Source of the DNA: an uncultured beta proteobacterium
Lineage (GTDB): Bacteria; Pseudomonadota; Gammaproteobacteria; Burkholderiales; Burkholderiaceae_C
Length of the DNA: 54,482 nucleotides
Direction: 5' to 3'
NCBI GenBank assembly: GCA_903914615.1
Contig: CAIWPS010000719.1
Location: forward strand, 1 to 54,482
Below the pieces are notes generated by a model. The model saw only the letters and a program-made list of their open reading frames with translations. It was not told the origin of the DNA and did no database searches. The position numbers and the translations under genes are program-made. Shown in pieces: positions 8,536-26,746 of the stretch; positions within the stretch are counted from its first letter, which is position 1, and the number at the start of each line of letters is the position of its first letter.

Positions 8536-8937
8536 TCATACGAGTCCCGCCCGCTTCAGCAACGCCCCGAAGTGCGCCAGCTGCGGCGCCAGCTCGGCCA
8601 GCGCGGCGTCGTGGCCGGCCTCGGCTTTGTGCAGGAATTTCTCGACCAGGTAGTAGATCGGCGTGGTGTCGCCCGTCTTTTCGATGTAGCGCTCAAGGTC
8701 GTCGACGCCGAATTTCCGCTTCTTGTTGTCCGAGTCGATCTGGGCGCTGAGCTGCACCGACAGGTTCGAAGGCGCGCAGTCCAGATCGATGGCAACCTTG
8801 CCGAGTCCTCGCTGATAGACGCCTGTTGCGATGCACTCGCGCAGGCTCGGGTAGATCTCGACCAGGCCGGGTTCGAAAGACAGCGTGAGCTGCTGTGCGG
8901 GCACCGCCGGCGCCACGCGGTTGGACGTGCGCTTCAC
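8536..8937 (-). CDS. CII-like phage regulatory protein
   Basis: Downstream of cro; HTH-like KVAIDLDCAPSNLS. Confidence 0.65.
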   Translation of the reverse strand: MKRTSNRVAPAVPAQQLTLSFEPGLVEIYPSLRECIATGVYQRGLGKVAIDLDCAPSNLSVQLSAQIDSDNKKRKFGVDDLERYIEKTGDTTPIYYLVEKFLHKAEAGHDAALAELAPQLAHFGALLKRAGLV

Positions 8938-9067
8938 GAGCGGCCTCCGGATTGGGTTATAAGCGGTGAGCTCAGCTCGTATCGCGCGTTATCACTGTTG
9001 GGCAAAAAAATGGAGGCATGGACAACGCCACACAACCACGCCGCAGCCAGGAACAGCAAGACCATGA

Positions 9068-9247
9068 TCAGCCGCGCGCCGTGGCGCGCTCCCAGAGTTC
9101 GTCGAGCTGCTCGAGCTGCTTCTTGCTCAGCGAGCGACCGGCTTCGACTTGGGCACGCACCGAGACGAGGAAGTCGTGCTCCCACGAGTTCAGGCGCTCC
9201 TCGCGGTGCTCGCAGTCCTCGAGCAGCTGCAGGGTGTCGGCGTCCAT
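9068..9247 (-). CDS. Small hypothetical protein (59 aa)
   Basis: Read by hand: MDADTLQLLEDCEHREERLNSWEHDFL...LSKKQLEQLDELWERAT. Confidence 0.6.
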   Translation of the reverse strand: MDADTLQLLEDCEHREERLNSWEHDFLVSVRAQVEAGRSLSKKQLEQLDELWERATARG

Positions 9248-9248
9248 T

Positions 9249-10040
9249 TCACGACTCCAGGCGACGGCCGAACGCGATGCGGTAGCGCGCGCCCTTGGCC
9301 GAGTGGGTCTCGTCGCAATAGCGGCGGAAGGCGTCCTCGTGCAGCTCGCCAGGACGCATCTCGATGCCGTGGCCCGTCGTACCGCCCTTCCAGGAGCCTT
9401 TCTCGGGGCCGACCTCGGCGCTGAAGTTCAGGTCCAGCCTGCGGTAGACGCGGGGCCGCGTGAACAGCGACAGCCACTTGAACCAGCCCTCGCCGAGCCG
9501 CGTCTCGCGCTCTTCGATGTGGGTCGTCGCGACGATGCGCTGGCCGTCGTAGTCGGCGAACTCGAAGCGGGCCTTGGGCACCGAAGCACGGCCTGCGTCG
9601 AACGCCGCCCAGTTCTTGAAAATGCCCTCTGGAGGCGCGCTCCAGATGTGCTCGCCCTGCAGGCCGTAGAAGCTGTGACGCACCTGGCGCCACTGTGTCC
9701 ACGGCAGGAACTTCGACCAGCTCTTCGTGGTCGTGCTGTCGTGCGTCTGGGGCCCGAGGAAGACCTGCAGGAAGCCGTCGTTCAGGCTGAAGCCGTACTT
9801 GCGCGCGTGACGATCCCAGGACTGCTGCGGGTGCGTCCAGTGCTGGAACAGCTGAGGCAGCTCGAGGATGAACGAGTAGCCGCGCACCGCCAGCCAGAGG
9901 TGGCAGCCCGGGTGCTCGTCACCGTCACCAGAGCTGAGCACGGCGCGCCACGGGCGCCAGCTCTTCTCGTCCGGCGCGAAGACCGTGATGTACGGGCCGA
10001 GGTGGTGGTCCCGGTCGGAGTACCTGCGGTATCGGCGCAT
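9249..10040 (-). CDS. Hypothetical protein
   Basis: 263-aa ORF with an AAGGA RBS. Confidence 0.7.
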   Translation of the reverse strand: MRRYRRYSDRDHHLGPYITVFAPDEKSWRPWRAVLSSGDGDEHPGCHLWLAVRGYSFILELPQLFQHWTHPQQSWDRHARKYGFSLNDGFLQVFLGPQTHDSTTTKSWSKFLPWTQWRQVRHSFYGLQGEHIWSAPPEGIFKNWAAFDAGRASVPKARFEFADYDGQRIVATTHIEERETRLGEGWFKWLSLFTRPRVYRRLDLNFSAEVGPEKGSWKGGTTGHGIEMRPGELHEDAFRRYCDETHSAKGARYRIAFGRRLES

Positions 10041-10043
10041 GGC

Positions 10044-10259
10044 TCAGTCCTTCCTACGTTCGACGTCGACGCGCTCGCGCCAGAAGTGCTGGCTCTGCTC
10101 GTAGCGCTCCAGCGACTCGGCCATCAGGCGACGGCGGCGGTTGGTCTCACGGCGCTCTTCGATGCAGGTGACGAACCACGCGACCACCACGGCCAGGGCC
10201 GCGACGACCAGGAGCAGGACGGCCTGCAGGAAGCCGGTGTACGGGGATGGGCACTGCAT
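10044..10259 (-). CDS. Small membrane protein
   Basis: One hydrophobic TM segment. Confidence 0.5.
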   Translation of the reverse strand: MQCPSPYTGFLQAVLLLVVAALAVVVAWFVTCIEERRETNRRRRLMAESLERYEQSQHFWRERVDVERRKD

Positions 10260-10262
10260 GGG

Positions 10263-10469
10263 TCAGGCCCCCTGCCCTGCCGGCTGGTCGTCGACCGCGG
10301 GCGCGGCGAGCCCCTGAGATTTGCGCCACAGCGCCGCTTGCACGCGGTCCGTGATCCGTGCCGGAAGTTCATCCGGCCACTTGTCCACCGCCTGGTAGGT
10401 GACGCCAATTGCCTCGGCGGCGGCGGGTATGGAACCGCCGAGGAGTTCAATGGCTTCGGTCTTGAGCAT
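10263..10469 (-). CDS. cro: Cro-like repressor
   Basis: MLKTEAIELLGGSIPAAAEAIGVTYQAVDKWP; divergent from cI. Confidence 0.9.
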   Translation of the reverse strand: MLKTEAIELLGGSIPAAAEAIGVTYQAVDKWPDELPARITDRVQAALWRKSQGLAAPAVDDQPAGQGA

Positions 10470-10477
10470 GCGCTCAT

Positions 10478-10538
10478 TGAACCATAGTTCACGGGTTGCA
10501 TCAACCGAAGTTCAGTCCATCCTTTCAACCATGGTTGA
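10478..10538. promoter_or_regulatory. OR-like region with three 14-bp operators
   Basis: TGAACCATAGTTCA (10478), TCAACCGAAGTTCA (10501), TCAACCATGGTTGA (10525). Confidence 0.85.
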
Positions 10539-10551
10539 TGAATTCAGGGCT

Positions 10552-10989
10552 GTGGAATATGGAAAGCGCTTCAAGTCCGCGATGGACGCTTGGGCAAAGG
10601 CAGATCGTCCCGAACGCACGGTGCACAGGGTCGCCGAGCAGCTTGAGATCACCTACCAGGGCGTGATGAAGCTGGCGGCCGGCAAGGTCAAGGCGCCCGG
10701 CGCCTACACCAACGCCAAGGCAGCGGAGCTTTTCGGCGTCGGCCCGGACTGGCTGGCGATGGGCGATCCGTACCCGCGTGAGCGAGGGAAATCAGCGAAC
10801 GTGAGACCACTGCCGCATCGTCCCGAACTACCTTGGCCGCTCGACGGGGTTGACGAGAAAGCCGTTCGAGCTCTCGACCCAGAGGACCGAAGGAGACTGG
10901 CTGACGCAGTGGTCATAGCCGCTGGGTTTCTGAATTTGAGCGTCGCAAGCGCCAGGTCATCGCGCCGAGCAAACGGCCGGCGGCCGTGA
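10552..10989 (+). CDS. cI: CI-like HTH repressor without an S24 peptidase domain (start may be 10531)
   Basis: HTH VAEQLEITYQGVMKL...AAELFGVGPDWLAMG; divergent from cro. Confidence 0.8.
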   Translation: MEYGKRFKSAMDAWAKADRPERTVHRVAEQLEITYQGVMKLAAGKVKAPGAYTNAKAAELFGVGPDWLAMGDPYPRERGKSANVRPLPHRPELPWPLDGVDEKAVRALDPEDRRRLADAVVIAAGFLNLSVASARSSRRANGRRP

Positions 10990-11109
10990 TCCTGTCCTTT
11001 TCAGCTTACGGTCGAGCAGGCCGTAGGCCTAGACGGGAATCCGATTGCGACGAGCGTGTCGGGATTTGCCGCGTGATTCCGTTTACAGGCAACCGAATAG
11101 GAGACTGAG

Positions 11110-11304
11110 ATGTCATCCTTTCACCATGCACCGTTGATCGTGGATTTGATTCGAATGGTCGCCTCTCCGGAGGCTGGGCCCGAGCGGTTACTGGTGCTGC
11201 AGGACGAGCACGGATCCTCCGTCACGATCCGGGTGACCGACAAGGCATTGCGCAAACTGGCTGAAATTCTGGATAGTCCAGAGGCGACTCCGCCAGCGAC
11301 CTGA
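11110..11304 (+). CDS. Small hypothetical protein
   Basis: AGGAGA RBS; 64 aa. Confidence 0.45.
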   Translation: MSSFHHAPLIVDLIRMVASPEAGPERLLVLQDEHGSSVTIRVTDKALRKLAEILDSPEATPPAT

Positions 11305-11495
11305 TGAAGCCGCCGGCCGGTCCAGGCACAAGACCGTACTTTTGCAGAAGGCTCGATTCTTCGTCCGGTGAGGATGAATCGCTGATTCGTCGCATGGCAC
11401 GCCAGTAGACGGTGCTCCAGACCTTCACCTTGTGTTCGTATTCGTCCCTGCACCTGCAATATTCGCCCATCAACAGCTCCTAGGAATTCGGCAGC

Positions 11496-11518
11496 GCCCG
11501 CAACACGCGGGCTTTTTT
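11496..11518 (+). terminator. Intrinsic terminator
   Basis: GCCCGC-AACAC-GCGGGC followed by TTTTTT. Confidence 0.8.
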
Positions 11519-11529
11519 GCGAGTTTGCT

Positions 11530-11569
11530 TGAACCATGGTTGACAGACAAGCGTGAACCGTAGTTCAAT
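11530..11569 (+). promoter_or_regulatory. PL/OL-like promoter with two operators
   Basis: TGAACCATGGTTGA (11530) overlaps TTGACA (11540); TGAACCGTAGTTCA (11554). Confidence 0.8.
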
Positions 11570-11608
11570 GCGTCCGTGCTCTGCATTTCGACAGAGCAGG
11601 AGACCGAG

Positions 11609-12127
11609 ATGCAGCTCAAGGAAATCGACGACGCCGCCGCGGCGCTCGCCAACGTCAAGATCCCCGCGATCGCCACCCTCTGGCCCGACCAGGGAGGCCG
11701 CAACGGCGGCCTGATGCGCGGCATCGATGGCGGACCCGACTACTTCCTGATCTACGCCGACGACCAGGCGGCGGAGGCCGAACTCGAGTGGGGCGGCTAC
11801 GGCAAGGAAGAGTCCGGCGCCAAGTCCGACCATGACGGCCTGGCCAACACGCGCGCGCTGATCGCCAGCGAGCACAGCCACCCGGCCGCAGAGTTCGCCG
11901 GCGAAGCGCGCGCGGGCGGCTTCAGCGACTGGTACATCCCGGCGCGCCGCGAATGGCGCGTGCTCGCGGGCAAGGTGCCCGACGCCTTCAAGCCCGACTG
12001 GTACTGGTCCTCGACGCAGTACTCGCGCACCAACGCGTGGGTGCAGGACTTCGGCGTCGGCTACCAGATCCTCGACGGCAAGTTCTTCTCGCGTCGCGTC
12101 CGGCTCGTCCGCAGATTGTTCCTTTGA
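11609..12127 (+). CDS. DUF1566/CLec-fold DGR target protein 1 (remote target)
   Basis: DWYIPARRE, WYWSSTQYS...AW...RVRLVRR; C-terminal variable repeat. Confidence 0.9.
   Translation: MQLKEIDDAAAALANVKIPAIATLWPDQGGRNGGLMRGIDGGPDYFLIYADDQAAEAELEWGGYGKEESGAKSDHDGLANTRALIASEHSHPAAEFAGEARAGGFSDWYIPARREWRVLAGKVPDAFKPDWYWSSTQYSRTNAWVQDFGVGYQILDGKFFSRRVRLVRRLFL
12014..12117 (+). repeat. DGR variable repeat VR1
   Basis: 104-bp ungapped match to 19235-19338 and 19881-19984. Confidence 0.92.
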
Positions 12128-12176
12128 TCCTTCAGTCCTTCTGAAGGCCCAAGCGAAGCAACTACGGGAGAAGAGC

Positions 12177-12653
12177 ATGGCAGCACAAGAGAGCCTCGGG
12201 CTTGTGGGCATTCACGCCACCTGCCCCCAAGCCATCGCCAGCGTCGCGCTGATGCACGCCGCGATGGATGACACGGCGGACTACGCCGTCAACCACGCCG
12301 CGGGCGCCCGCTTCACCGATGCTCAGATCGAGCAATTCACCGACCAGGCCGACGCCGCGGCGCGCCTGGAGGCGCTCGACGACATGCGCCACGCGCTGCG
12401 CATCGTCTGGAACGAGGCGCTGGCGTCGCTCGGCCGGCTCAACCCGCGCAAGCTGCCGATCGTGGCCGGCGGCAAGGTCGCGCTGATCTCGCTGCCCGAG
12501 GTTCTGACGCTGTGCGGCGAGACGAACCACCTGTACGTGCTGCTGGCCGACGTGCTGCGCGGCGCGAACGCGGACGTGCTGCACATCCACCTGCGCTCGG
12601 CCTACATCGAGCGCGTCGCCGAGCAGCTCGTCGACCTGGGGTGGCAGCAGTGA
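12177..12653 (+). CDS. Hypothetical protein (start uncertain)
   Basis: ORF with a GGAG upstream. Confidence 0.6.
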   Translation: MAAQESLGLVGIHATCPQAIASVALMHAAMDDTADYAVNHAAGARFTDAQIEQFTDQADAAARLEALDDMRHALRIVWNEALASLGRLNPRKLPIVAGGKVALISLPEVLTLCGETNHLYVLLADVLRGANADVLHIHLRSAYIERVAEQLVDLGWQQ

Positions 12654-13123
12654 GCGCGACCTCCATCTTTCCGCGCGCCGACAAGGCCGCGCGCGAGGTC
12701 GATCCGATGATCCTCGCCCAGGCGCTGGACCACATCGCGAAGTCGGCGGCCAGGAGCCGCACCAGCACGCGTCGCCTGCGCTGGATCGAGCAGCGCGCGA
12801 TCTTCGCGCTGGAGGGCCGTGAGTATCGCGACATCGATCTCGACCTGCCCAAGGATTCCGGCAACACGTCGGAAAAGAACGCGCGACGCATCGCCTACCT
12901 GCTCTCCGCGCTGCATCGCATCAACGCGCTGGGCCCGACGCCGTCAGTTCAGCAGATCGTCGACGAAGCGCTCGGGATCGCGGAGGCGCAGAGTTTTCCG
13001 GCGGACGTGCTGCCGGCGCGCCAGACGATCACGCTCGGCGCCGGTGACTCCAACGAATTGCCCTCAGGCAACCGCGAGGTCTTGGATGGCGCCCTGTGGC
13101 TCGATCTCGGGAGGACTGCCTGA
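12650..13123 (+). CDS. Hypothetical protein
   Basis: GTGA overlap start. Confidence 0.6.
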   Translation: MSATSIFPRADKAAREVDPMILAQALDHIAKSAARSRTSTRRLRWIEQRAIFALEGREYRDIDLDLPKDSGNTSEKNARRIAYLLSALHRINALGPTPSVQQIVDEALGIAEAQSFPADVLPARQTITLGAGDSNELPSGNREVLDGALWLDLGRTA

Positions 13124-13575
13124 TGGCCAGCGTTACTCACGGCATGCACAACACGCGTACCTACGTGATCTGGCGCGCGATGAAGGCTCGCTGCACGAAT
13201 CCAAACGTCGACAGCTTTGTCCGCTACGGCGGCAGCGGCGTCACCGTGTGCGCCGCCTGGCTTGCGTCCTTCCAGGCCTTCCTGGGCGACATGGGCGAAG
13301 CACCGGCCGGGATGTCGATCGATCGATTCCCGAACAAGACCGGCAACTACGAGCCCGGGAATTGCCGGTGGGCGACTTGGCGACAGCAGAACGGAAACCG
13401 AGTCGACAACCTCGTCCTAGAGCTCAACGGCCGTAGCCAATGCGCTGTCGCTTGGGCGCGGGAGATGGGCTACGAGAAGTCGCTGATCGTCGAGCGCGTG
13501 CGCCGGGGCTGGTCCGCCGAACGCGCCATCTTGACGCCTCCTCGTGACAACCGTGCCCCGCGGAGGTGCGCATGA
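13123..13575 (+). CDS. HNH-type homing endonuclease
   Basis: HGM...W..MK.RC.NPN...YGG.G..VC..W...SIDR...GNYEPGNCRWAT. Confidence 0.88.
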   Translation: MASVTHGMHNTRTYVIWRAMKARCTNPNVDSFVRYGGSGVTVCAAWLASFQAFLGDMGEAPAGMSIDRFPNKTGNYEPGNCRWATWRQQNGNRVDNLVLELNGRSQCAVAWAREMGYEKSLIVERVRRGWSAERAILTPPRDNRAPRRCA

Positions 13576-13639
13576 AGGCCGCGCTTCACAGCCTTTTGGT
13601 GTGGTTCACCGGGATGCCCGACGAGTGGGAGACGCTGCA

Positions 13640-13879
13640 ATGACCCGCGGCTGCACCGGAGCCGGCTGCCGCCAAGGCCGCATGCCCGAGGCCTGCGACT
13701 GCGAGCTCTCGCGCGAACTGGGCGTCGACCCAGACTACGTCATCCCGCCGCCCATGCTGACGCCAGACGACCACGCGGCCATCGCACGCGTGCGTCGCTG
13801 GACCCTCGTTGCCATTGCCGCCGGCTTCGCCCTCCTCGGCGCGCTACTGGGCATCTCCGACGCGAGGTTCACGCCGTGA
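13640..13879 (+). CDS. Small Cys-rich membrane protein
   Basis: C..C.QGR...C.C followed by a C-terminal TM segment. Confidence 0.45.
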   Translation: MTRGCTGAGCRQGRMPEACDCELSRELGVDPDYVIPPPMLTPDDHAAIARVRRWTLVAIAAGFALLGALLGISDARFTP

Positions 13880-14076
13880 ACGCGTACGAGCAAGCCCTCG
13901 CACTCGCCGCCCAGGCTGGCCACGCGTTCTACGTGAATCGGCATGGTGAACTGTTGCTGGCCCAAGCTCACAGGGAGCGCCTGTGCTGTGCGATTGCGCA
14001 TCCGAGCGGCACGCTGGAGTGGGTGGTCCAGGGCTACTCGCACGCGGTGGCGCTGAGCGCAGGCGGTGCGACATGA
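13876..14076 (+). CDS. Hypothetical protein
   Basis: Overlapping start/stop chain. Confidence 0.45.
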   Translation: MNAYEQALALAAQAGHAFYVNRHGELLLAQAHRERLCCAIAHPSGTLEWVVQGYSHAVALSAGGAT

Positions 14077-14912
14077 ACGCCCCCGACCGAGTCATCCCGA
14101 TCGTGGCCGAGCCTTCGCTGGTCGTCCGCGCCTCCAGCTGGGGCGGCCTCTTCGACTGCGCCATGCGTTGGGAGGGCGAGCAGATGCTGGGCATTCGCAA
14201 GGCGGCCGGCCTGCGTGCCCACCTTGGCACCTCGGTGCACGCGTCGACGGCAGCCTACGACCTCGGCCGCCTGCCGGGCGGACAGCCGATCAGCGTCGAC
14301 GATGCCGCGTCGGTCTTCGTGGACACGCTGCGCAACCCGGGCCGCGACGTCGACTTCGGCGTCGACGACCTCACGCTGGTCGAAGCGGAACGTACGGGCC
14401 TAGCGCTGCACACGGCCTACTGCTACGACTTGGCGCCGCAGTTCACGTTCCAGTCGGTGGAGATGACGCTCTCCCCGCTCGACATCGACTGCGGCGGTGG
14501 CACGGTGGTGCGCCTGACCGGCCAGATGGACCGCGCGCGCGTCGCCGAGACGCCCGCTGGACCGGTCATCGCCGACGTGAAGACCGGAACCCGCGTCGTC
14601 GTCGACGGCAAGGCGAGCACACGCGGGCGCAGCCCGCAGCTGGGCACCTACCAGCTGCTGTACGAGGAGACGGCGCAGCAGCCGTCCGCTGGCGCACAGA
14701 TTCTCGCGCTGCCCACCAAGGGGAAGGCCGTCGCCCTTGCCTCGGAGGTCTTCGACGCGCGGCGAGTGATGGTTGGCGTCGACGGCCAGCCCGGACTCAT
14801 CGACTTCGCCGCGCAGATGTTCCGCGCCGGCCTGTTCCCTCCGAACCCCTCTTCCAACCTGTGCTCGCAGAAGTACTGCGCGCGCTGGGCCACCTGCAAT
14901 TTCCACGAGTGA
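14073..14912 (+). CDS. PD-(D/E)XK exonuclease (RecB/Cas4-like)
   Basis: GTSVH, TGQMD, ADVKTG, QLGTY, C-terminal CSQKYC..W..C. Confidence 0.88.
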   Translation: MNAPDRVIPIVAEPSLVVRASSWGGLFDCAMRWEGEQMLGIRKAAGLRAHLGTSVHASTAAYDLGRLPGGQPISVDDAASVFVDTLRNPGRDVDFGVDDLTLVEAERTGLALHTAYCYDLAPQFTFQSVEMTLSPLDIDCGGGTVVRLTGQMDRARVAETPAGPVIADVKTGTRVVVDGKASTRGRSPQLGTYQLLYEETAQQPSAGAQILALPTKGKAVALASEVFDARRVMVGVDGQPGLIDFAAQMFRAGLFPPNPSSNLCSQKYCARWATCNFHE

Positions 14913-14926
14913 AGGACTACGCGAAC

Positions 14927-16105
14927 ATGACCGCTACCACTGACATCACCCAGCTGCGCACGCCGCGGCCGCCAGTCGCCGAGCCCGACCAGGCCGTCGA
15001 CCTGTTCACCGCCAAGGGCTTCGAGCTCGCCATCCGCATCGGCAAGGCCTTCGCCACCTCGAACGCGGTACCGGCCCAGTTCCGCAACTTCACCGAGAAG
15101 AAGGAAAAGGGCGGTGCGATCGTGCTGGTGGAGAACCCGGCCGCACTCGGCAACTGCATCGTGGCCATCGAGACCGCGCGCGCCGTGGGCATGTCTATCA
15201 CCGCCGTGATGCAGCAGGCCAACATCATCGAGGGCAAGCTCTCGTGGTCGGCCCAGTTCGTCATCGGCGCGATCAACGCCTCGGGCCGCTTCACGCCGCT
15301 GCGCTTCGACATGAAGGCCAAGGGGCCGATGAAGGCGACTTACCGCGAAAAGCAGGGCTGGAACAACGAGAAGCGCGGCTTCGACTTCGTCGACCGGACG
15401 GTCGAGGTCGACAACGTCGAGTGCATCGCCTGGGCGTTGCCCCGAAACTTCGCGTGCCCGCCCGGCATCTACACGCTCAAGCAGGCGCGTGACGCAAACC
15501 TGCCGGTGATCGAGTCGGCGCCGGTGTCCATGAAGATGGCCGTCGAAGAAGGCTGGTACGCGAAGCCGGGCTCGAAGTGGCAGACCGAGATGCGCACGCT
15601 GATGCTGCAGTACCGCGCCGGCGCCTTCTTCGGCCGCATCCACGCGCCCGACATCGTCATGGGCATGGGCCGCACGACCGAGGAGGTCGTCGACATGCAG
15701 ACGATCGAGGTGGCCAGCGACGGCGCCGTCACGTCGGTGACGACAGAGCAGTTGCGCGGCGACCGCAAGGTGCAGCCGGCCGAGGTGGTCAACCAGGTCA
15801 ACGCGGTGGGCGCTGACGACGAGCCGACGGGCGAGGTGCCTCCGCCGCCGCCGCCGGCGACCGCCGCCACGCCCACGCCGGGCCCGGCATTCGACGCCGA
15901 AGGCCTGGCCGAACGCATGCGCGCCGCCAAGGATCGTTCCTCGCTGGACGCCCTGGGCAAGGAGCTGCAGGCAGCCAACGTTGGCGAGGAAGTGAGCGCC
16001 CCGCTCGAGGAGCTGTTCCTCGAGCTGCTCGACGCACTGCCGGCCGCGCCGGCGCCGGCCCCCACCAGCCGTCGCGCCTCGCGTCCCGCCGCCTCGATGG
16101 AGTGA
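14927..16105 (+). CDS. Putative RecT-like ssDNA annealing protein
   Basis: Follows the exonuclease; NC.VA...A...MQ...IIEGK, W...ML.YRA..FF.R..APD. Confidence 0.75.
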   Translation: MTATTDITQLRTPRPPVAEPDQAVDLFTAKGFELAIRIGKAFATSNAVPAQFRNFTEKKEKGGAIVLVENPAALGNCIVAIETARAVGMSITAVMQQANIIEGKLSWSAQFVIGAINASGRFTPLRFDMKAKGPMKATYREKQGWNNEKRGFDFVDRTVEVDNVECIAWALPRNFACPPGIYTLKQARDANLPVIESAPVSMKMAVEEGWYAKPGSKWQTEMRTLMLQYRAGAFFGRIHAPDIVMGMGRTTEEVVDMQTIEVASDGAVTSVTTEQLRGDRKVQPAEVVNQVNAVGADDEPTGEVPPPPPPATAATPTPGPAFDAEGLAERMRAAKDRSSLDALGKELQAANVGEEVSAPLEELFLELLDALPAAPAPAPTSRRASRPAASME

Positions 16106-16111
16106 CCCGCC

Positions 16112-17923
16112 ATGCGCATCACTTCCATCACCGTCGAGAACTTCCTGGGTGTGCGCAGCGCGGCGATCGCGTGCGAGACCCCCGTCACCTTGGTGGCCGG
16201 TCCCAACGCCGCCGGAAAGTCCAGCATCCGCGACGCGGTCGCACTCGCTCTGACCAGCGATCTGGGCCGCGTGAGCCTCAAGAAGGAGGCCGGCCAACTC
16301 GTGCATGCCGACCAGGTCGCAGGCTACGTCGAGGTCACCAACGCGGACGGTGACCTGTGGGGTGTCACGATCACGGCCGCTGGCAAGATCACCGACACCC
16401 AGAAGCGCAGCGAGCCCGACCCGGTCTTTCCGTACGTGCTCGACGCCCAGCGCTTCGCACGCCTGAGCGAGACCGAGCGCCGCAAGTTCCTCTTCGACCT
16501 CATGGGCGTCAAGATGGCGCCGGCCGAAATCAAGACGCGCCTGATCGATCGCCTGTACCCGAAAGGCTGCAGCGGTGCCGAAATGATCCGCATCGACCGC
16601 GTGCTGCCGTTGCTGCGCGCCGGCTTCGAGTCCGCCAGCAAGGAGGCCAAGGAAAGGGCCACGACCGCCAAGGGCGCTTGGCGCGCGACGACGGGCGAGA
16701 CCTACGGCGCGGTGAAAGCGGCGACCTGGCGGGCGGCCACGCCGGCGTTCGACCAGGCGGCCTTCGCCAAGGCCCAGGCCGCGCTGGCGAGTGCCGACGA
16801 GAAGGTGGCGGTGGCCCAGCGCGAGCTCGGTGCCAAGCAGGCCGAGAAGAAAGCCCACGACGACCAGCAGGCGCGCATCGATGGCCTGAAGGAGTCGTCG
16901 GGCAAGGTCGACCGCATCAAGACCAAGCTGGCCAAGGACGAGGAAGACCTCAAGACCTGGGGACTCGAGGTGACGCAGCTGAGGCAGAAGGCCGGTGCCG
17001 GGCCTCGGGTGGGCCTCGTGCACGACCTGGCCGCGGCGCTGAACAAGGTGCGCTACCTGCTGATCCCCGGAACGGCGTCGGTGCTCGAGACGGAGATGGT
17101 CGAGGGCGTGCTGGACGCCTACGAGAAGGAGCACGGCAAGTTCGGCGCCGCTGGCGACAAGGAAGCCGCGGCCAAGCTGCCCCAGGCGGTCAAGTCCGTG
17201 GAGCTGTACACGAGCGCCGTCCTCAACGGCAAGCGTGACCTGGCGCTGGCTGAGCGCGCCGCCGAGGATCTGAAGGCGATCGAGGGCTCGACATGGACGG
17301 CCGCGCCACTGACGCTGGCCGGCGACCAGCTGGTGGCCGCTCAGCTCGAGAAGACCGAGGCCTTCAACAAGCTCGACGCGCTGCGCACGGCCAAGACCGC
17401 GGCCGAGGGCGCCGCGAAGAAGACGGCTGACGCTGCAGCGCACCACGCCGACGTCACCGCTTGGGACGCGATCGGCGACGCGCTCTCACCCGACGGCATC
17501 CCCGCCGACCTGCTGACGGAGGCCATCAAGCCGATCAATGACCGCCTGGAGCAGTCCGCGGCCGACGCCGAGTGGCTGCAGGTCGTCATCGAGCCCGACA
17601 TGCGCGTCACCAGCGCCGGCCGGCCGTACGCACTGCTGTCGGAATCCGAGAAGTGGCGCGTCGACGCGATGGTGGCCGAGGCCATCGGACACCTGTCGGG
17701 TGCTCGCCTGCTGGTGTTGGACCGCATGGACGTGCTCGATCCTGCCGGCCGAGTCGACCTGTTCGCCTGGCTCGACGTTCTGGCCACCAACGGCGAGATC
17801 GACACCGCACTCGTGTTCGGCACGCTCAAGGCGCTGCCGGCAGAACTCCCCGCCACGGTCTCCGGTCACTGGATCGAGAACGGCGTCGTGGCCAACCCGC
17901 AACTGCTCAAGGAAGCCGCTTGA
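16112..17923 (+). CDS. SbcC/Rad50-like ABC ATPase
   Basis: Walker A GPNAAGKSS, long coiled coil, LSESE signature, LLVLDRMD Walker B. Confidence 0.88.
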   Translation: MRITSITVENFLGVRSAAIACETPVTLVAGPNAAGKSSIRDAVALALTSDLGRVSLKKEAGQLVHADQVAGYVEVTNADGDLWGVTITAAGKITDTQKRSEPDPVFPYVLDAQRFARLSETERRKFLFDLMGVKMAPAEIKTRLIDRLYPKGCSGAEMIRIDRVLPLLRAGFESASKEAKERATTAKGAWRATTGETYGAVKAATWRAATPAFDQAAFAKAQAALASADEKVAVAQRELGAKQAEKKAHDDQQARIDGLKESSGKVDRIKTKLAKDEEDLKTWGLEVTQLRQKAGAGPRVGLVHDLAAALNKVRYLLIPGTASVLETEMVEGVLDAYEKEHGKFGAAGDKEAAAKLPQAVKSVELYTSAVLNGKRDLALAERAAEDLKAIEGSTWTAAPLTLAGDQLVAAQLEKTEAFNKLDALRTAKTAAEGAAKKTADAAAHHADVTAWDAIGDALSPDGIPADLLTEAIKPINDRLEQSAADAEWLQVVIEPDMRVTSAGRPYALLSESEKWRVDAMVAEAIGHLSGARLLVLDRMDVLDPAGRVDLFAWLDVLATNGEIDTALVFGTLKALPAELPATVSGHWIENGVVANPQLLKEAA

Positions 17924-18618
17924 CCGCCGACACCATCGAAGCCGAGTCGATCGAAGCCAAGATCGACGCCCACACCCGCGCCGAGCTGCGCGACCTGGGC
18001 CTCTTCTACGACACCGAGACCACGGGTCTGCCGCTGTTCGAGAAGCCCAGCGAAGACCCGCGCCAGCCGCACGTGGTACAGCTCGGCGCGCTGCTGGTCG
18101 ACATGGACTCGCGCGAGATTCTCGAGCAGTTGGACGTCATCATCCGCCCCGATGGCTGGCACATTCCCGAGGAAGCCGCCAAGGTGCACGGCATCACGAC
18201 GCAGTTCGCGCTCGAGGTGGGCATCCCCGCGAAGGAAGCGTTCGAACACTTCCTGGCCATGTGGGGCGCCAACGGGGTGGTAACGCGAATCGGATTCAAC
18301 GAGCCCTTTGACGCTCGCCTGGTGCGCATCGGCATGTTCCGCCACTTCGATGCCCAGGCGGCTGACGCGTGGAAGCTCGGCCTGGCGCACGACGTCATGC
18401 GCGTGGTGTCGCCCATCTGCAAGCTGCCGCCCACCGAGGCCATGAAGCGCGCCGGCCGCGGCAAGCAGTTCAAACAGCCCAAGCTGAGCGAGGCCTACCG
18501 GCACTTCTTCGGCGAAGAGCTGACCGGCGCTCACGGTGCGCTGGCGGACGCGCGGGCCACGATGCGCATCCACTTCCACCTCGAAGACCTCAAGCGGGCC
18601 GAACGCGCCGCGGCCTGA
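17920..18618 (+). CDS. DnaQ/DEDDh 3'-5' exonuclease
   Basis: YDTETTG, FNEPFD, AHGALAD. Confidence 0.92.
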   Translation: MTADTIEAESIEAKIDAHTRAELRDLGLFYDTETTGLPLFEKPSEDPRQPHVVQLGALLVDMDSREILEQLDVIIRPDGWHIPEEAAKVHGITTQFALEVGIPAKEAFEHFLAMWGANGVVTRIGFNEPFDARLVRIGMFRHFDAQAADAWKLGLAHDVMRVVSPICKLPPTEAMKRAGRGKQFKQPKLSEAYRHFFGEELTGAHGALADARATMRIHFHLEDLKRAERAAA

Positions 18619-18730
18619 CCCAGTTTCCAGCCCGCAACCGAGCCGCGCGTCTCCTCCCTTCGCACAACGATTCCGGCTGCCGCGCTTCAGCGCAAGGGCT
18701 TCTTCTTCCACCGCCAACGAAAGGCACCTC

Positions 18731-19348
18731 ATGAACGCACCGCAATCCATCCAGACGCAGGTCGCCGCGCTCACCACGCTGACCATCGGCACCAAGCTCG
18801 AAGTCGGCTTCTTTGCCGGCTACATCAACACGCCCGACGGTGTCTTCGGCATCGAGGCGGCGCCCAAGGCCAGCGAGTTCGAAGGCATCTGGCTGCCGAC
18901 CTACACCGACTTGCCGGGCGCCCGCAGCTACTTCGACGGCGCCGCCAACACCATCGCGATGGCGAATGCGGGCAGCGAGATCGCCAAGAAGGCGCTGGCC
19001 ACCGAGATCGGCGGCCTTCGCGACTGGTACATCGCGTCGCGAGACGAGCTCGAGCTGCTCTATCGCGGTCTCAAACCGACTCGGGAGGAGAACTACGTCT
19101 ACCGCAACGGCGAAAACCCCTCGTCTCTCCCCGTGGGCTACCCGTACACCGAGGCACTGCCGGCACAGACGTCGGTTGCCATCTTTCAGAAGGGCGGGCC
19201 CGAAGCGTTCGACACGGCCTGGTACTGGTCCTCGACGCAGTACTCGCGCTACGTCGCGTGGATGCAGCACTTCGCCGGCGGCGGCCAGAACTACGTCGGC
19301 AAGAGCTTCTCGCGTCGCGTCCGGCTCGTCCGCAGATTCAAGGCTTGA
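18731..19348 (+). CDS. DUF1566/CLec-fold DGR target protein 2
   Basis: DWYIASRDELE, WYWSSTQYS...RVRLVRR. Confidence 0.9.
   Translation: MNAPQSIQTQVAALTTLTIGTKLEVGFFAGYINTPDGVFGIEAAPKASEFEGIWLPTYTDLPGARSYFDGAANTIAMANAGSEIAKKALATEIGGLRDWYIASRDELELLYRGLKPTREENYVYRNGENPSSLPVGYPYTEALPAQTSVAIFQKGGPEAFDTAWYWSSTQYSRYVAWMQHFAGGGQNYVGKSFSRRVRLVRRFKA
19235..19338 (+). repeat. DGR variable repeat VR2
   Basis: Matches VR1/VR3; differences only at codon positions 1-2. Confidence 0.92.
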
Positions 19349-19403
19349 TCCTTCAATCCTTTCAACCTGTGCCGGCTGCCGACGCCGGCCAACGGAGACC
19401 TCA

Positions 19404-19994
19404 GTGATCACGATCCAGAACATGCACGTCACGCTCAGCGCGCACAACCCGATGGCCTCGGCGTTCGTTGCTGCGCTGCTGGCCGGCGCCGATGATGCGC
19501 CATCGACAGAAGACGCCGCGACCAGCGCCATCCCACCCATTGGTGCCATCTGGCCTGGCGAGGGCGGCCGCAACGGCGGGCTCATGCGTGGTGTCGACGG
19601 TGGCCCCAACTACTGGTTGATCCTGGCCGAGGGCGCCGCCGCGACGGCCGAACTCGCTTGGGGTGGCTACGACCAGGACACCGGTGCGACGTCGGATCAC
19701 GACGGCCTGGCCAACACGAAGCTGCTGGCCGAGAGCGGGCTGGACTTTCCCGCCGCGAAGTTCGCCCACGCCGCGCGCCTGGAGGGCAAGGACGACTGGT
19801 ACCTGCCCGCGATCCGCGAGTGCCGGCTGCTCTCGGCCAACGTGCCCGAACTGTTCGAGACCGGCTATCACTGGAGCAGCACGCAGTTCTCGCGCGACCT
19901 CGCGTGGGTGCAGACCTTCGGCGTCGGCACCCAGGGCACCGGCGACAAGCTCAGCTCGCGTCGCGTCCGGCTCGTCCGCAGATTGTTCCTTTAA
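19404..19994 (+). CDS. DUF1566/CLec-fold DGR target protein 3 (paralog of target 1)
   Basis: WPGEGGRNGGLMRG, DWYLPAIRE, HWSSTQFS...RVRLVRR. Confidence 0.9.
   Translation: MITIQNMHVTLSAHNPMASAFVAALLAGADDAPSTEDAATSAIPPIGAIWPGEGGRNGGLMRGVDGGPNYWLILAEGAAATAELAWGGYDQDTGATSDHDGLANTKLLAESGLDFPAAKFAHAARLEGKDDWYLPAIRECRLLSANVPELFETGYHWSSTQFSRDLAWVQTFGVGTQGTGDKLSSRRVRLVRRLFL
19881..19984 (+). repeat. DGR variable repeat VR3
   Basis: Matches VR1/VR2. Confidence 0.92.
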
Positions 19995-20013
19995 CCCTTG
20001 AATCCTTCGAGCC

Positions 20014-20376
20014 ATGATCCACACCGATCTGCCGATCTACGCCAAGGGCCGCGACCTGCTGTCGCTGGCTCTTGACGTGCAGCGCCAGCTGCCACGTGAC
20101 ATGAAGCGTTCGATCGGCGAGCGCATTCACATGCACTGCGTCGACATGCTCAACGAGATGGCTCTCGCGAACGCAACGAAGCAGGCCTCGCGCGTGAAGC
20201 ACATCGAACGGCTGCTGGAGCTGCAGCGAGCCACTCAAGTCTTGCTCCGCGTGAGCCATGACAAGGGATGGGTCGCGCACAAGCTCTGGGGTCGCGCGGT
20301 ACTCCTGCTCGACTCGATCGGCAAGCAGGCCGGTGGCTGGCTCAAGTCCGCATACGGCAAGGCGCCTGCAGCATGA
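20014..20376 (+). CDS. avd: DGR accessory variability determinant (four-helix bundle)
   Basis: HTDLPIY...PRD.K..IGERI...IGKQAGGW; directly after the target genes. Confidence 0.88.
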   Translation: MIHTDLPIYAKGRDLLSLALDVQRQLPRDMKRSIGERIHMHCVDMLNEMALANATKQASRVKHIERLLELQRATQVLLRVSHDKGWVAHKLWGRAVLLLDSIGKQAGGWLKSAYGKAPAA

Positions 20377-20409
20377 CGGTCAAGGCCCTCATGCCCGCGC
20401 GCATGAATC

Positions 20410-20439
20410 TGGACAGCGCACCCGCGGCGGACGTACACT
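20410..20439 (+). promoter_or_regulatory. Putative sigma70 promoter of the C4 cassette
   Basis: TGGACA-N18-TACACT. Confidence 0.55.
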
Positions 20440-20496
20440 CCACTCGCACCCACTCATTGGGTGTCGGGATTGGCGTCCTGAAGCATCCGCGGCGAG

Positions 20497-20518
20497 AGCC
20501 GCATCCCTGCGGCTTTTT
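20497..20518 (+). terminator. Leader terminator/attenuator hairpin upstream of the C4 RNA
   Basis: AGCCGC-ATCCCT-GCGGCT followed by TTTT. Confidence 0.65.
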
Positions 20519-20536
20519 CATGCCCGGTTCGGTTTA

Positions 20537-20617
20537 TGGCGGCCCAGGCGGGGAACCGCAAGGTTCACCGGTTCCGCTCCGCGGGTGCCCGGTACGCCAA
20601 CCCGTCTGGGCTGCCGC
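20537..20617 (+). ncRNA. C4-like antisense RNA
   Basis: Closing stem GGCGGCCCAGGCGGG/CCCGTCTGGGCTGCC, GAACC-GCAA-GGTTC hairpin, ACCGG..CCGGT hairpin; ACGCCAA complements TTGGCGT at 20470 and 20623. Confidence 0.85.
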
Positions 20618-20669
20618 CCCGATTGGCGTCGTGACGGCAGTTGACACAACTGCACCCACGGAGCCGATC

Positions 20670-21179
20670 ATGGACTCATGCCCTGTCGTCGAAGAATGGC
20701 GACCCATCCCCGAATTCCCGCGCTACGAGGTGAGCAACTTCGGCCGCGTGCGCTGGCGCCATCGCGTGCGCAAGCCGTTCCCCAGCGTTGATGGCTATCC
20801 GCTGGTTTCGTTCTGGCGGGACGGCAAGTCGGTGCATCGCTTCGTGCATGTTCTGGTCGCCGAAGCCTTCATCGGCCCAAAACCGGAGGGGTTGGTCGTT
20901 CGCCATCGCAACGGCATCAATTCGGAATGCCACGTCGGCAATCTGGCGTACGGGACGTACCTTGAGAACTCGGCCGACATGGCGACTCACGGAACTGTCG
21001 TCAACGGCGAGCGCCACCCAGCCAGCAAGTTGACCTCGGATCAGGTACTGGAAATCCGCCGCCGCCACATTCCGCGCGACCCGCGCCACGGGCTCAATGC
21101 GCTGGGCCGCGAGTTCGGGCTCGCCACGAAGTCCGTACAGGCCATCGTCCAGCGCAGGACATGGAAGCACCTGCCGTGA
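20670..21179 (+). CDS. NUMOD4-HNH homing endonuclease
   Basis: EEWRPIP...YEVSNFGRVR; VHVLVAEAFIG..P...VRHRNG...NL; GERHPASKLT. Confidence 0.92.
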   Translation: MDSCPVVEEWRPIPEFPRYEVSNFGRVRWRHRVRKPFPSVDGYPLVSFWRDGKSVHRFVHVLVAEAFIGPKPEGLVVRHRNGINSECHVGNLAYGTYLENSADMATHGTVVNGERHPASKLTSDQVLEIRRRHIPRDPRHGLNALGREFGLATKSVQAIVQRRTWKHLP

Positions 21180-21322
21180 CGATCAACAGCTACCTCGGCC
21201 TGTTCCGCCAGACGCCAGCCAGCCACCACGTCCGCGCCCAGTTGGCCAACGCGGCCCGCCGGCGCGGCTTCTCAGTCAACGCCTCCCTCACCAAGGTCTA
21301 TCGCAAGACCGCCAACGCCTGA
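21176..21322 (+). pseudogene. C-terminal remnant of a DGR reverse transcriptase
   Basis: Read by hand: VTINSYLGLFRQTPASHHVRAQLANAARRRGFSVNASLTKVYRK; NSYLG is a thumb-region motif; lies where the RT would end after avd. Confidence 0.75.
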
Positions 21323-21335
21323 AAGGCACATCACC

Positions 21336-21596
21336 ATGATCAAACCCACCATCGGTCGCGTCGTCATCGTCCAGCGCGGCAGCCACGACGCGCAGCCGGA
21401 CGGCTGGCCCGCGTTCGTCAACAAAGTGCACAGCGACCGCTGCATCAACGTCGCGGGCTACAACGAGTGGGGCACGACGGTGTCCTTCAACTCGGTACCG
21501 CTGCTGCAGGACGACGACACGCCGCCGGCGGCCGGCCCGTATGCCGAGTGGATGCCGTACCAGAAGGCCCAGGCCGAGAAGCACGCCGCCAGCTGA
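21336..21596 (+). CDS. Conserved phage hypothetical protein
   Basis: MIKPTIGRVV...W.WMPYQ type small protein. Confidence 0.75.
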   Translation: MIKPTIGRVVIVQRGSHDAQPDGWPAFVNKVHSDRCINVAGYNEWGTTVSFNSVPLLQDDDTPPAAGPYAEWMPYQKAQAEKHAAS

Positions 21597-21723
21597 TTTC
21601 AACGGGCGCGGGGCCGGATGAGCCACAGCTTGCGCGGTGCGAGGCCGAGAACGCGACTCGGCGCAATAGACGACCGCTGAGGCAACAGGCCGGCCCCAAG
21701 CCCACCACTTCGGAAAGACCACC

Positions 21724-22988: not shown

Positions 22989-23927
22989 ATGACTTTCGAA
23001 CTCACCCAGATGACCGCCGTGCGCGTGCTCGACGTGCGCACCCTAGCCGCCAAGAACCGAGAGCCCGGTGACCTGGTCGGCGCACAGCTACTCCTGCGGG
23101 CAACCCTGCCCATCGCGAGCCTCGCGATGTTCGACCCAGCGCTGCCGGGCATGTTCGCCCGCAAGGCCGCGCCGAAGGTGCAGGGCCAGCTCGATGGCGT
23201 CGAGGAGCTCGAGCTCACCGAAGTGGGCCAGCACGTCAAGAGCATGCCCTGGGTGTACGACCAGTCGGGTAACACGATCGAGATCGACCGCGGCCTGGGC
23301 GGCACGAGCAACCTCAAGCTCGTCGACTGCACCGTGCACAGCGTCTCGTGGAAGGTGCAGGAAGGCGTCTCGGCGACGTACACGTGGACCGTCGACGCGC
23401 CGTCGCTGGCCGAGACGATCCGCGGCAAGCTCACGAGCCTGAAGCGCACGGAGATCCCGATCACGCAGGTGGCGCCTCAGGCTGAAGGACAGCAGGACTT
23501 CGACGCGCCTGCGCCGCGTCTCACGCCCGCCCAGCCGCGCCAGGCCAACGCCGAGGGCAAGACGGTGGCGCAGAAGGCGGCCGAGGTCAAGGGCGCGGCC
23601 GGCATGAAGCCGACCGTCGCGTGGCCGTTCCCGCAAGACGGCACACCCGGATCGGGCCCGAACGCCAAGAGCGTGCCGCCGGCGGACGCCACCAGCGCAC
23701 TGCTGGCCGACGTCGCGAAGAAAGGCCCGGGCCACAGCGCCAACCCGAAGCCGAAGGCTGCGGCCAAGAAGACGGTGGTGAAGAAGGTCGAAAGCCGTCG
23801 TCCCGCTGCGTACAAAGACCCGAAGTCGGGCCAGACCTGGACCGGCCGCGGGCTCAAGCCGCTTTGGTTGACGCAGGCGCTCGCCGGCGGTGCGAAGCTG
23901 GATGACTTCCAGGTGAAGGCGCACTGA
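22989..23927 (+). CDS. Protein with a C-terminal H-NS DNA-binding domain
   Basis: YKDPKSGQTWTGRGLKPLWL...G.KLDDF. Confidence 0.85.
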   Translation: MTFELTQMTAVRVLDVRTLAAKNREPGDLVGAQLLLRATLPIASLAMFDPALPGMFARKAAPKVQGQLDGVEELELTEVGQHVKSMPWVYDQSGNTIEIDRGLGGTSNLKLVDCTVHSVSWKVQEGVSATYTWTVDAPSLAETIRGKLTSLKRTEIPITQVAPQAEGQQDFDAPAPRLTPAQPRQANAEGKTVAQKAAEVKGAAGMKPTVAWPFPQDGTPGSGPNAKSVPPADATSALLADVAKKGPGHSANPKPKAAAKKTVVKKVESRRPAAYKDPKSGQTWTGRGLKPLWLTQALAGGAKLDDFQVKAH

Positions 23928-25567: not shown

Positions 25568-25854
25568 TGCCGACGACCCGCTGCCCCGTCGTGCGACCTC
25601 AGGCCTCGAAGTACGGTCCGCTGGTCAACGACTACCACTCGTTCGAGGGCAACACGATGCGCGCGGTCTGCAGGCACTGCGGCCAGACCCGCAAGGAATG
25701 CCAGACGGCGAAGCACGACCGCTTCTGGGGTGAGGGCATGGAGGCGGCCGCTGGCCGCGCGCCGCCGCACGAGCGCTTCGACGCGCCGTTGAATCCCGAT
25801 CGCTGGGCCAGCGTGACTTCCCTTATCTCGCCCGCACAACGGAGCCTCATCTGA
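25567..25854 (+). CDS. Hypothetical protein
   Basis: TGATG coupling; CRHCG. Confidence 0.5.
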   Translation: MPTTRCPVVRPQASKYGPLVNDYHSFEGNTMRAVCRHCGQTRKECQTAKHDRFWGEGMEAAAGRAPPHERFDAPLNPDRWASVTSLISPAQRSLI

Positions 25855-26177
25855 TGCCCATCGCCCCTGAGAACCGCGCCCGCTACCCGAAGGACTGGAA
25901 GGCGATCGTCGAGCGGGTGCGAGAGCGCAGCGGCGACCGGTGTGAGGGTTCGCCGGCGTTCCCTGACTGCCGCGCGCCAAATGGTCAGCCACACCCGGTC
26001 ACCGGCTCGCGCGTCGTGCTCACCACCGGCCACCTCGACCACGTACCAGAGAACTGCGACCTGGCCAACCTGCGCCACTGGTGCCAGCGCTGCCACCTGG
26101 TGTATGACGGGCCGCACCACGCGGAGTCACGCGCAGCGCGCAAACGCGCCGCGGCGGCCACGCAGGAGCTGTTCTGA
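25854..26177 (+). CDS. Small HNH-like protein
   Basis: MPI.PEN..RYP.DW...R....CE...LTTGHLDH.PENC...NL..WCQRCH. Confidence 0.8.
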   Translation: MPIAPENRARYPKDWKAIVERVRERSGDRCEGSPAFPDCRAPNGQPHPVTGSRVVLTTGHLDHVPENCDLANLRHWCQRCHLVYDGPHHAESRAARKRAAAATQELF

Positions 26178-26593
26178 TGGACTGGCAGCCTCATCCCCTC
26201 GACCACGAGAGCCGCGCCCTGTGGCACCTCGAGGAGGTTGTCGACCAGGCCGTGGGCGAGCACCCGCAGCTGCGCCAGCCCATCGTGCACCGGCGCGACG
26301 GCGAGGACTACTCGTACAAGGGCATCTCGAGCATGCTGCGCCGGGTCTTCGCGAAGGTGCGCGCCGAGGTGCCGGCGCTGGCCGCGATGGAGTCGTTCGG
26401 GTTCCGCGACCTCAAGGGCAAGGGCGCCACGGACATGTGGCTGGCCGGCGAGGCCATCGAGCGTATCCAGCTGCTGTGCGGCCACGCCAAGGCCTCAACG
26501 ACCGAGATCTACATCAAGGCCCGGTGGCGCGAGACCGCCAAGCCCAACGCCTCCGAAATACTCCTGCCGCCGCGTTCAATATCCAGTATTTGA
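26177..26593 (+). pseudogene. int: N-terminally truncated tyrosine integrase
   Basis: FRDLKGKGATD...QLLCGH...TTEIY; only 138 aa; adjacent to attP. Confidence 0.8.
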
Positions 26594-26699: not shown

Positions 26700-26746
26700 G
26701 ACTGTTAATCCGTAGGTCCCTGGTTCGAGCCCAGGTCGGGGAGCCA
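26700..26746 (+). other. attP core = 3' half of tRNA-Asn(GTT)
   Basis: GACTGTTAATC anticodon loop, GGTTCGAGCC T-arm, CCA end; 5' half absent. Confidence 0.9.

Follow-up and report, generated by a model that had tools for sequence, protein, structure and literature searches.

A C4 RNA and HNH endonuclease cassette in place of the template repeat and reverse transcriptase of a phage diversity-generating retroelement

Results

Organization of the locus

The contig CAIWPS010000719.1, assembled from an uncultured beta proteobacterium (GCA_903914615.1), was analyzed over its whole length of 54,482 nucleotides, and this stretch is referred to below as the window. It is the genome of a pond phage and carries part of a diversity-generating retroelement (DGR): three target genes that each end in a variable repeat (VR), the accessory gene avd and, directly after avd, a cassette encoding an RNA and a nuclease. 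In a sister phage, L009, the same position is occupied by the template repeat (TR) and the reverse transcriptase (RT) gene. The features of the locus, all on the forward strand, are as follows.

11609..12127, + strand: target gene 1, 172 aa, Lcl_C/DUF1566, C-type-lectin-like fold, phrog_4245
12014..12117, + strand: VR1, template A at 15/15 mismatches with the sister TR over positions 1-99
18731..19348, + strand: target gene 2, 205 aa, Lcl_C (Pfam, phrog)
19235..19338, + strand: VR2, 15/15 mismatches at template A
19404..19994, + strand: target gene 3, about 196 aa, Lcl_C (Pfam, phrog)
19881..19984, + strand: VR3, 17/17 mismatches at template A; two alleles among six sequencing runs
12118..12143 after VR1, 19339-19365 after VR2 and 19985-20010 after VR3, + strand: short direct repeats with an 8-base period
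20014..20376, + strand: avd, intact, 120 aa, PF22296 at 42.6 bits (cut-off 40), phrog_3206
20360..20412, + strand: remnant of the RT-15 RNA (5' hairpin and linker), containing an ATG (20373) that overlaps the avd stop
20410..20439, + strand: promoter-like site, a consensus match only, with a -35 hexamer that spans the left junction of the cassette
20433..20484, + strand: upstream C4 target region (c4-a1b1-like), RF03163 at 30.7 bits, under the gathering score of 46.7
20532..20621, + strand: C4 antisense RNA, RF01695 at 59.3 bits (gathering score 45)
20670..21179, + strand: NUMOD4-HNH endonuclease gene, 169 aa, PF07463 (NUMOD4) and PF13392 (HNH_3) over their cut-offs, phrog_59
21176..21322, + strand: C-terminal remnant of the DGR RT, 48 codons, with a GTG that overlaps the HNH stop

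Target 1 is recognized by Pfam PF07603 at 36.5 bits (cut-off 34.9), and its AlphaFold model (pLDDT 93, from a 44-sequence alignment) finds the Lcl C-terminal domain 8q4e as the top Foldseek match (E 1.8e-4), followed at lower ranks mostly by C-type lectins. The early operon begins with this gene, at a distance of 8 kb upstream of avd; targets 2 and 3 immediately precede avd, and in each target the 3' end is a VR. For target 3, no sequence relative was found in the PDB. The three targets are small lectin-fold proteins of the early operon and probably not parts of the virion. The Avd protein is identical to that of the sister phage at 118 of 120 residues (98%); against the NCBIfam model NF033474 it scores 44 bits, under the cut-off of 80.

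Variable repeats and their natural template

The three 104-nt repeats, which start at 12014, 19235 and 19881, align without gaps. Among them 14 codons (22 nucleotide positions) vary, exclusively at codon positions 1-2; 13 of these codons are of the form NNC and one is NTG, and a block of 29 nt at the 3' end is invariant. The gapless alignment, the 14 variable codons with 13 of the form NNC and the shared 3' block had been described in the original prediction, made from the letters of the window alone, and are confirmed here. Between targets 1 and 3, the differences at codon positions 1/2/3 number 29/28/41 upstream of the repeats and 8/10/0 within them (Fisher p=2.5e-4).

The pattern had been read as the signature of adenine-specific mutagenesis, and the natural TR supports that reading. 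This TR lies at L009:9507-9610 in the sister phage, and the same sequence is present in L083. It carries A, and no other base, at 22/22 variable positions, which is what the original prediction had proposed to look for in a homologous TR, and it equals the VRs at 61/62 invariant positions within positions 1-84. Every mismatch of the VRs to it over positions 1-99 (47/47) falls on a template A; the probability that all 23 mismatch positions in the VRs are template A by chance is 2.5e-17. Among the TRs of all fetched loci, those of L009 and L083 alone show 0 non-A mismatches to VR1-3, the next best having 11. On these sequence grounds, the identification of the repeats as DGR variable regions is supported.

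The template that had been reconstructed from the three VRs matches the L009 TR at 83/84 positions, and its four R-ambiguous codons are GAC in that TR. It is wrong at position 76, where the L009 template has A and VR1, VR2 and VR3 all have T, a difference that could not have been seen from three VRs. Either T was already present in the lost template, or three A-to-T events coincided. As a separate observation, A-to-T changes make up 21/47 of the substitutions in the window VRs and 9/32 in those of L009 (raw counts).

It had also been suggested that retrohoming was recent, and this stands in relative terms only. Each VR shows 0 differences from the sister TR at 33 non-A third positions, compared with 11-30% divergence from the sister at the four-fold sites of neighbouring genes. 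The absence of non-A drift in the VRs against this background suggests that the loss of TR and RT was recent.

By sequence, the repeats end in a boundary of the initiation of mutagenic homing type (IMH/IMH*): a constant GC-rich block is shared by all VRs, and the TR diverges from it at positions 101-102. No compact GC-rich hairpin was found directly 3' of the window VRs, and the direct repeats with the 8-base period stand there. At least two C[C/A]TT units occur in 55/89 distinct VR flanks vs. 1/38 TR flanks, and we regard these repeats as a candidate target signal that would replace the hairpin.

The replacement cassette

The gene order in L009 is target-target-avd-RT-15 RNA-TR-RT. The window aligns to L009 at 89.9% identity up to 20412 and again at 91.7% from 21185, and 20413-21184 is an unaligned insert. 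Thus, directly after avd, 772 bp stand in place of the 1,205 bp of TR and RT in L009, with a left junction at 20412/20413 and a right junction at about 21178-21184. L009 and L083, in which TR and RT are present at this position, represent cassette-free alleles. The TR is absent from the window, for which the original prediction had offered no reason, because the C4-HNH cassette replaced it along with most of the RT.

Remnants of the replaced region are found on both sides of the cassette. The RT-15 RNA (RF03018), which lies between avd and TR in L009 and its relatives, is full in L009 (165.8 bits) and partial in the window (42.5 bits, under the gathering score); only its 5' 53 nt are kept, and identity to L009 stops at 20412. 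On the right, the RT remnant matches aa 312-363 of the L009 RT at 86.5% by tblastn, with 43/45 aa identical.

Within the cassette, the promoter-like site is the sole match in 10400-21600, where shuffled sequences would lead one to expect 0.5. A 7-base complement to a C4 segment is found at 20470 and repeated at 20623, so that such sites stand on both sides of the C4 RNA. The HNH frame is open and in phase from the ATG at 20373. C4 modules of the P1/P7 type run from a promoter through an upstream target site, the C4 RNA and a downstream target site to the cargo gene, which is an antirepressor. The window cassette has the same order, but its cargo is an HNH gene and it is set in a DGR scar; repression of this cargo by C4 is predicted.

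The cassette was compared with six sequencing runs (X1-X6), using assembled contigs only, which drop rare variants. Contigs of X1 and X3 cover it without differences and those of X2 with 2 differences.

The lost parts were also sought elsewhere. In the window and the 866 contigs of the host bin G000, no TR was found (best non-self score 50/82 invariant sites), and the only matches of the sister TR-RT DNA in this set were the three VRs. None of the 8 RT matches in the host bin is a DGR RT: they resemble group II intron RTs (by eye), and only one matches the sister RT, at 23%. The exact 3' block occurs, among viral contigs, only on the L009 contig and, among metagenome contigs, only in L083 and L084, which are near copies of L009. 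Against 222 genomes of the genus, the best foreign match to the VR3 DNA is 74% (L086, which has its own TR).

Recurrence of HNH cassettes at other avd loci

Avd searches (54 viral and 29 genomic loci), pattern scans for RT-15 and relatives supplied the loci, which were pooled and dereplicated at 97%; Avd matches below 30% were dropped, leaving 94 distinct avd loci including the window. An RT start lies within 1.8 kb in 86/94 of these and is absent in 8/94. Three of the 8 RT-less loci carry an HNH cassette: the window, L118 and L148. L118 has a C4 RNA at 46.4 bits, a small open reading frame (ORF) and an HNH gene of phrog_3377; L148 has a C4-like leader that matches no C4 model and an HNH gene 53% identical to that of L118. 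Neither HNH protein aligns with the one in the window cassette. VRs are present in both the L118 genome and the L148 record, and no TR or DGR RT was found in either (both records may be incomplete).

The junctions are close to one another. Counted from the start of the GAATCTG linker, 8, 7 and 18 bases are kept at the left junctions of the three cassettes, and 19 at a clean deletion in L018. All four fall within 12 bases, at or just past the unpaired linker that follows the first hairpin of RT-15. In the remaining RT-less loci L019, L056, L177 and L208, and in L155 (whose contig starts after avd), the break lies elsewhere or its site could not be placed.

In a tree of avd built from 64 rows (Avd matches at 45% or more), the three HNH loci are each paired with a different RT-bearing sister. 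A single clade was rejected by the approximately unbiased (AU) test for the three HNH loci (p-AU 1e-103) and for L118 with L148 (2e-6). Judged from sequence, the swap for an HNH cassette at this one site is found in two further phage lineages, independently of the window, and it is likely that nuclease genes switch off DGRs repeatedly. In a scan for the RT-15 start pattern alone, 0 matches were found in 400 genomes of the order and 15 in 400 genomes of the family, most of the latter not being DGR loci.

Other arrangements were seen among these loci. L018 carries a second, unrelated complete DGR (8800-10864, reverse strand), whose template does not fit the orphan VR of L018. A DNA methyltransferase-like gene lies between TR and RT at L068 and L073 (G015), and another follows the TR at L208, where no RT lies within 1.8 kb.

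An open frame through RT-15 and the template repeat

An ATG overlapping the avd stop is present in 65/85 intact loci tested. It is in frame with the RT in 64 of these 65, and in 63 no stop interrupts the frame across RT-15 and TR, despite changes in length. The frame runs for about 80-105 codons into the RT (e.g. L009:9334-9624; L012 has one stop), and in 56 of the 63 open-frame loci there is no ATG near the RT core. Together, the open frame that overlaps avd and the lack of an ATG near the RT core suggest that the RT is translated from that ATG.

In 3/3 cassettes, the first cargo gene lies in the frame of the avd ATG without a stop (chance about 0.033); one must bear in mind that C4 modules have leader frames that are open by nature, which leaves phase alone as informative for this statistic. 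The nuclease module thus likely takes the translational slot of the RT.

A probably disabled retroelement and the case for passive replacement

Taken together, these results make it likely, in our judgement, that the locus is a disabled DGR, in which three lectin-fold targets and avd are kept while TR and most of the RT have been replaced by a promoter-C4-HNH cassette that is probably selfish and homing. In this view, a recent ancestor acquired the VR sequences through adenine-specific mutagenic retrohoming. An illegitimate recombination event may then have brought in the cassette at the unpaired linker that follows the first hairpin of RT-15, letting it take over the avd-coupled start codon that would normally open the RT frame, and C4 likely holds it down. 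By analogy with intronless homing, it would spread by cutting sister genomes that bear TR and RT in mixed infections. The phage would be unable to diversify alone, and its VRs would stay frozen unless a co-infecting sister supplied TR and RT. In a broader form, to which we give tentative and limited credence, recurrent HNH parasites of one DGR family, under antisense control, would cut the TR-RT region, replace it at the RT-15 linker, take the RT start and home, and their phages, with avd and the targets still intact, would borrow the hypermutation of a co-infecting sister.

Several observations weigh against this explanation. Homing is something we infer, both cleavage by the HNH protein and biased inheritance being predictions. 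Three cassettes are a small number, and the in-frame statistic is modest. The loci were found via avd or the 5' end of RT-15, which biases the set toward junctions downstream, so that the clustering is conditional on retention of avd. RT was lost without an HNH gene in 5/8 RT-less loci and in L155, and one of these, L018, is deleted at the cassette spot itself, which means that the hot spot can act in the absence of a nuclease gene. No counterpart of the window cassette was found elsewhere, and its DNA had no match in 50,697 phage records. The nearest relatives of its HNH protein (8 loci) are 33-43% identical and none has a C4, and similar C4 leaders in 7/400 family genomes all precede other cargo. 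Two gapped scans for an RT-15 start followed by C4, covering part of the possible spacings, returned 0 viral contigs. In addition, three other HNH genes in the phage mark such genes as common cargo here. Finally, the host bin is fragmented, and a second DGR prophage could be unassembled.

Some of these points would fit passive replacement, in which the RT-15 linker is a site of frequent deletion and insertion, or tolerates none but in-frame, non-polar junctions, and in which C4-led HNH modules, being common among phage cargo, were captured without any targeting of the DGR. In its favour are L018, cleanly deleted at this very position, the losses in L155, L177, L019 and L056, the varied cargo behind the C4 leaders of the seven genomes and the fact that the window cassette was found in no relative. 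However, 3/3 insertions at the junction carry HNH genes, of two unrelated families, and 0/7 of the other C4 leaders do so. We lean against passive replacement as a possible but unlikely account.

Alleles in the sequencing runs and possible rewriting in trans

VR3 has the window allele in X1, X3, X4 and X5, and a second allele, B, in X2 and X6, which come from two studies. Allele B has 6 listed changes, each of which falls on a template A (p=2e-4) and two of which restore A; the contigs that carry it show 11 differences from the window over 560 nt and 7 over 626 nt, with 5 and 1 of these, near the contig ends, unplaced. In X2, the cassette is present alongside allele B at similar depth. Wherever X1, X2 and X6 cover VR2, it matches the window. 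Furthermore, X1 contains low-depth contigs of a sister phage with VRs of the same template, in which 7/7 listed changes are at template A, and contigs of X1, X2 and X4 resemble a diverged RT C-terminus. Among the matches listed in the runs, no TR-bearing contig was found.

These alleles bear on the proposal that the VRs are still rewritten in trans, with a co-infecting or resident sister supplying TR RNA and RT to a phage that keeps avd and its own target signals, which would be compatible with a DGR disabled in cis. The placement of all listed allele B changes on template A, the VRs of a sister phage and the RT-like contigs in the runs, and the fit of the L009 TR to all three VRs with 0 non-A mismatches speak for it; in Bordetella, avd, TR and RT act in trans, according to PMC5758913. 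Against this, only two alleles were seen in six runs, VR2 is constant where covered and a TR contig is missing among the matches listed; moreover, the same picture would result if the cassette had homed into a sibling carrying another VR3, or if recombination with a sister had taken place. A single rewrite in trans would explain the two-allele pattern, as would homing into a sibling diversified in another way or such recombination; the pattern does not amount to continuing hypervariation. We consider rewriting in trans doubtful.

Two joints between repeats were noted in these contigs. One contig of X2 joins VR2 to the VR3 flank (19299/19946), skipping target 3 (646 nt), and a joint in X3 skips 7221; joints of this kind across shared repeats are possibly assembly artefacts, or else come from a real recombinant.

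Two further explanations have next to no standing. Ordinary drift of the paralogues or gene conversion between the three targets, with no DGR involved, could account for the T at position 76 in all VRs and for 16 further upstream bases shared by targets 1 and 2, but it is rejected by the natural template that L009 and L083 carry, the confinement of all mismatches to A, the adjacent avd and RT remnant, the sharp boundaries and the lack of any third-position change. That the missing TR and RT reflect a chimeric assembly, as the repeat-length VR-VR joints in X2 and X3 might hint, is equally implausible, since both cassette junctions are spanned in the independent assemblies of X1, X2 and X3, and the left one also in X4.

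The phage genome

The DGR locus is part of a contig with a 141-bp terminal repeat, which is probably a complete circular genome. One strand carries the terminase, portal, head, DNA-ejection and lysis genes and the other the recombination operon, and from this gene content we read the phage as a podophage of the P22-like kind. Further genes are listed below.

9249-10040, - strand: Acb3, inhibitor of the cyclic-oligonucleotide-based antiphage signalling system (CBASS), PF25187 at 240.7 bits
13096-13575, 25854-26177 and 33535-34029: three further HNH genes
22989-23927, + strand: protein with a C-terminal H-NS DNA-binding domain
26177-26593: C-terminal integrase piece of 138 aa, the only integrase part found
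32174-33424, - strand: PurD-like ATP-grasp gene, which sits among structural genes

The HNH protein encoded at 13096-13575 is 42-46% identical to those of L118 and L148. Two DNA methyltransferase genes lie near the Acb3 gene. Upstream of target 1, a Cro-like gene and an ORF of 152 aa without a family match lie between similar palindromes at 10470-10535 and 11530-11567, which are possible operators. An attP-like stretch of 47 bp (26700-26746) is identical to the 3' end of a tRNA-Asn gene on G000:C530, where no phage sequence follows it. CRISPR-like links between phage and host were considered and rejected, as the matches on contigs C50 and C521 of the bin fall inside ordinary genes.

Discussion

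In its workings the locus resembles the target half of a common CLec2-type DGR, without being functional in cis. With DGRs of architecture B1 (targets-avd-TR-RT), DUF1566/CLec2, category 'd' (PMC5758913; prototype BPP-1), the window shares VRs at the 3' ends of C-type-lectin-like genes, differences from the TR at A only, a constant 3' block, avd, and several targets including one that is non-adjacent. The same source (Wu et al. 2018) describes targets of the DUF1566 type, several targets per DGR, non-adjacent ones included, and action in trans, and it gives 34% as the share of DGRs with a GC-rich inverted repeat after the IMH. Unlike those DGRs, the window is without TR and RT in cis, has 8-base direct repeats and no GC-rich hairpin after the VRs, and carries small, stand-alone targets in an early recombination operon instead of tail genes; in addition, the RT frame of its intact relatives begins at the avd stop and crosses the RNA and the TR. 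Signs of recent activity are reported for 50-75% of DGRs (PMC8144416).

RT RNA motifs have been described with the type of element left open (PMC5737381, Weinberg et al. 2017). In contrast to that account, the RT-15 RNA lies here within a DGR and carries an open frame.

Intronless homing is known from the free-standing homing endonuclease genes (HEGs) of T4-like phages (seg, mob; PMC2988022), and interchangeable HEGs have been described at one locus (PMC10448857). Like the T4-type HEGs, the HNH gene of the window is free-standing, is absent from the sister allele, overlaps its neighbours at start and stop codons and has an RNA-structured leader, and, as with the interchangeable HEGs, different classes occupy one locus. 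Unlike the T4-type HEGs, the cassette deletes a dispensable retroelement core and does not lie beside an essential gene, and its homing is predicted only. In titles and abstract openings we found nothing on an HNH or C4 cassette that replaces TR and RT.

The relic state as such is ordinary. What is new is the repeated in-frame swap by RNA-regulated HNH cassettes at one site, together with a probably translated template region. Surveys based on RT miss RT-less relics of DGRs, which here make up 8 of 94 loci. If our explanation is true, the nuclease cassettes would be a case of one selfish element switching off another, and would offer phages a route to fix variable proteins. The window phage and L009 form a natural pair, with which the rewriting of one phage's genes by the DGR of another and the translation of the template RNA as the start of the RT message become testable.

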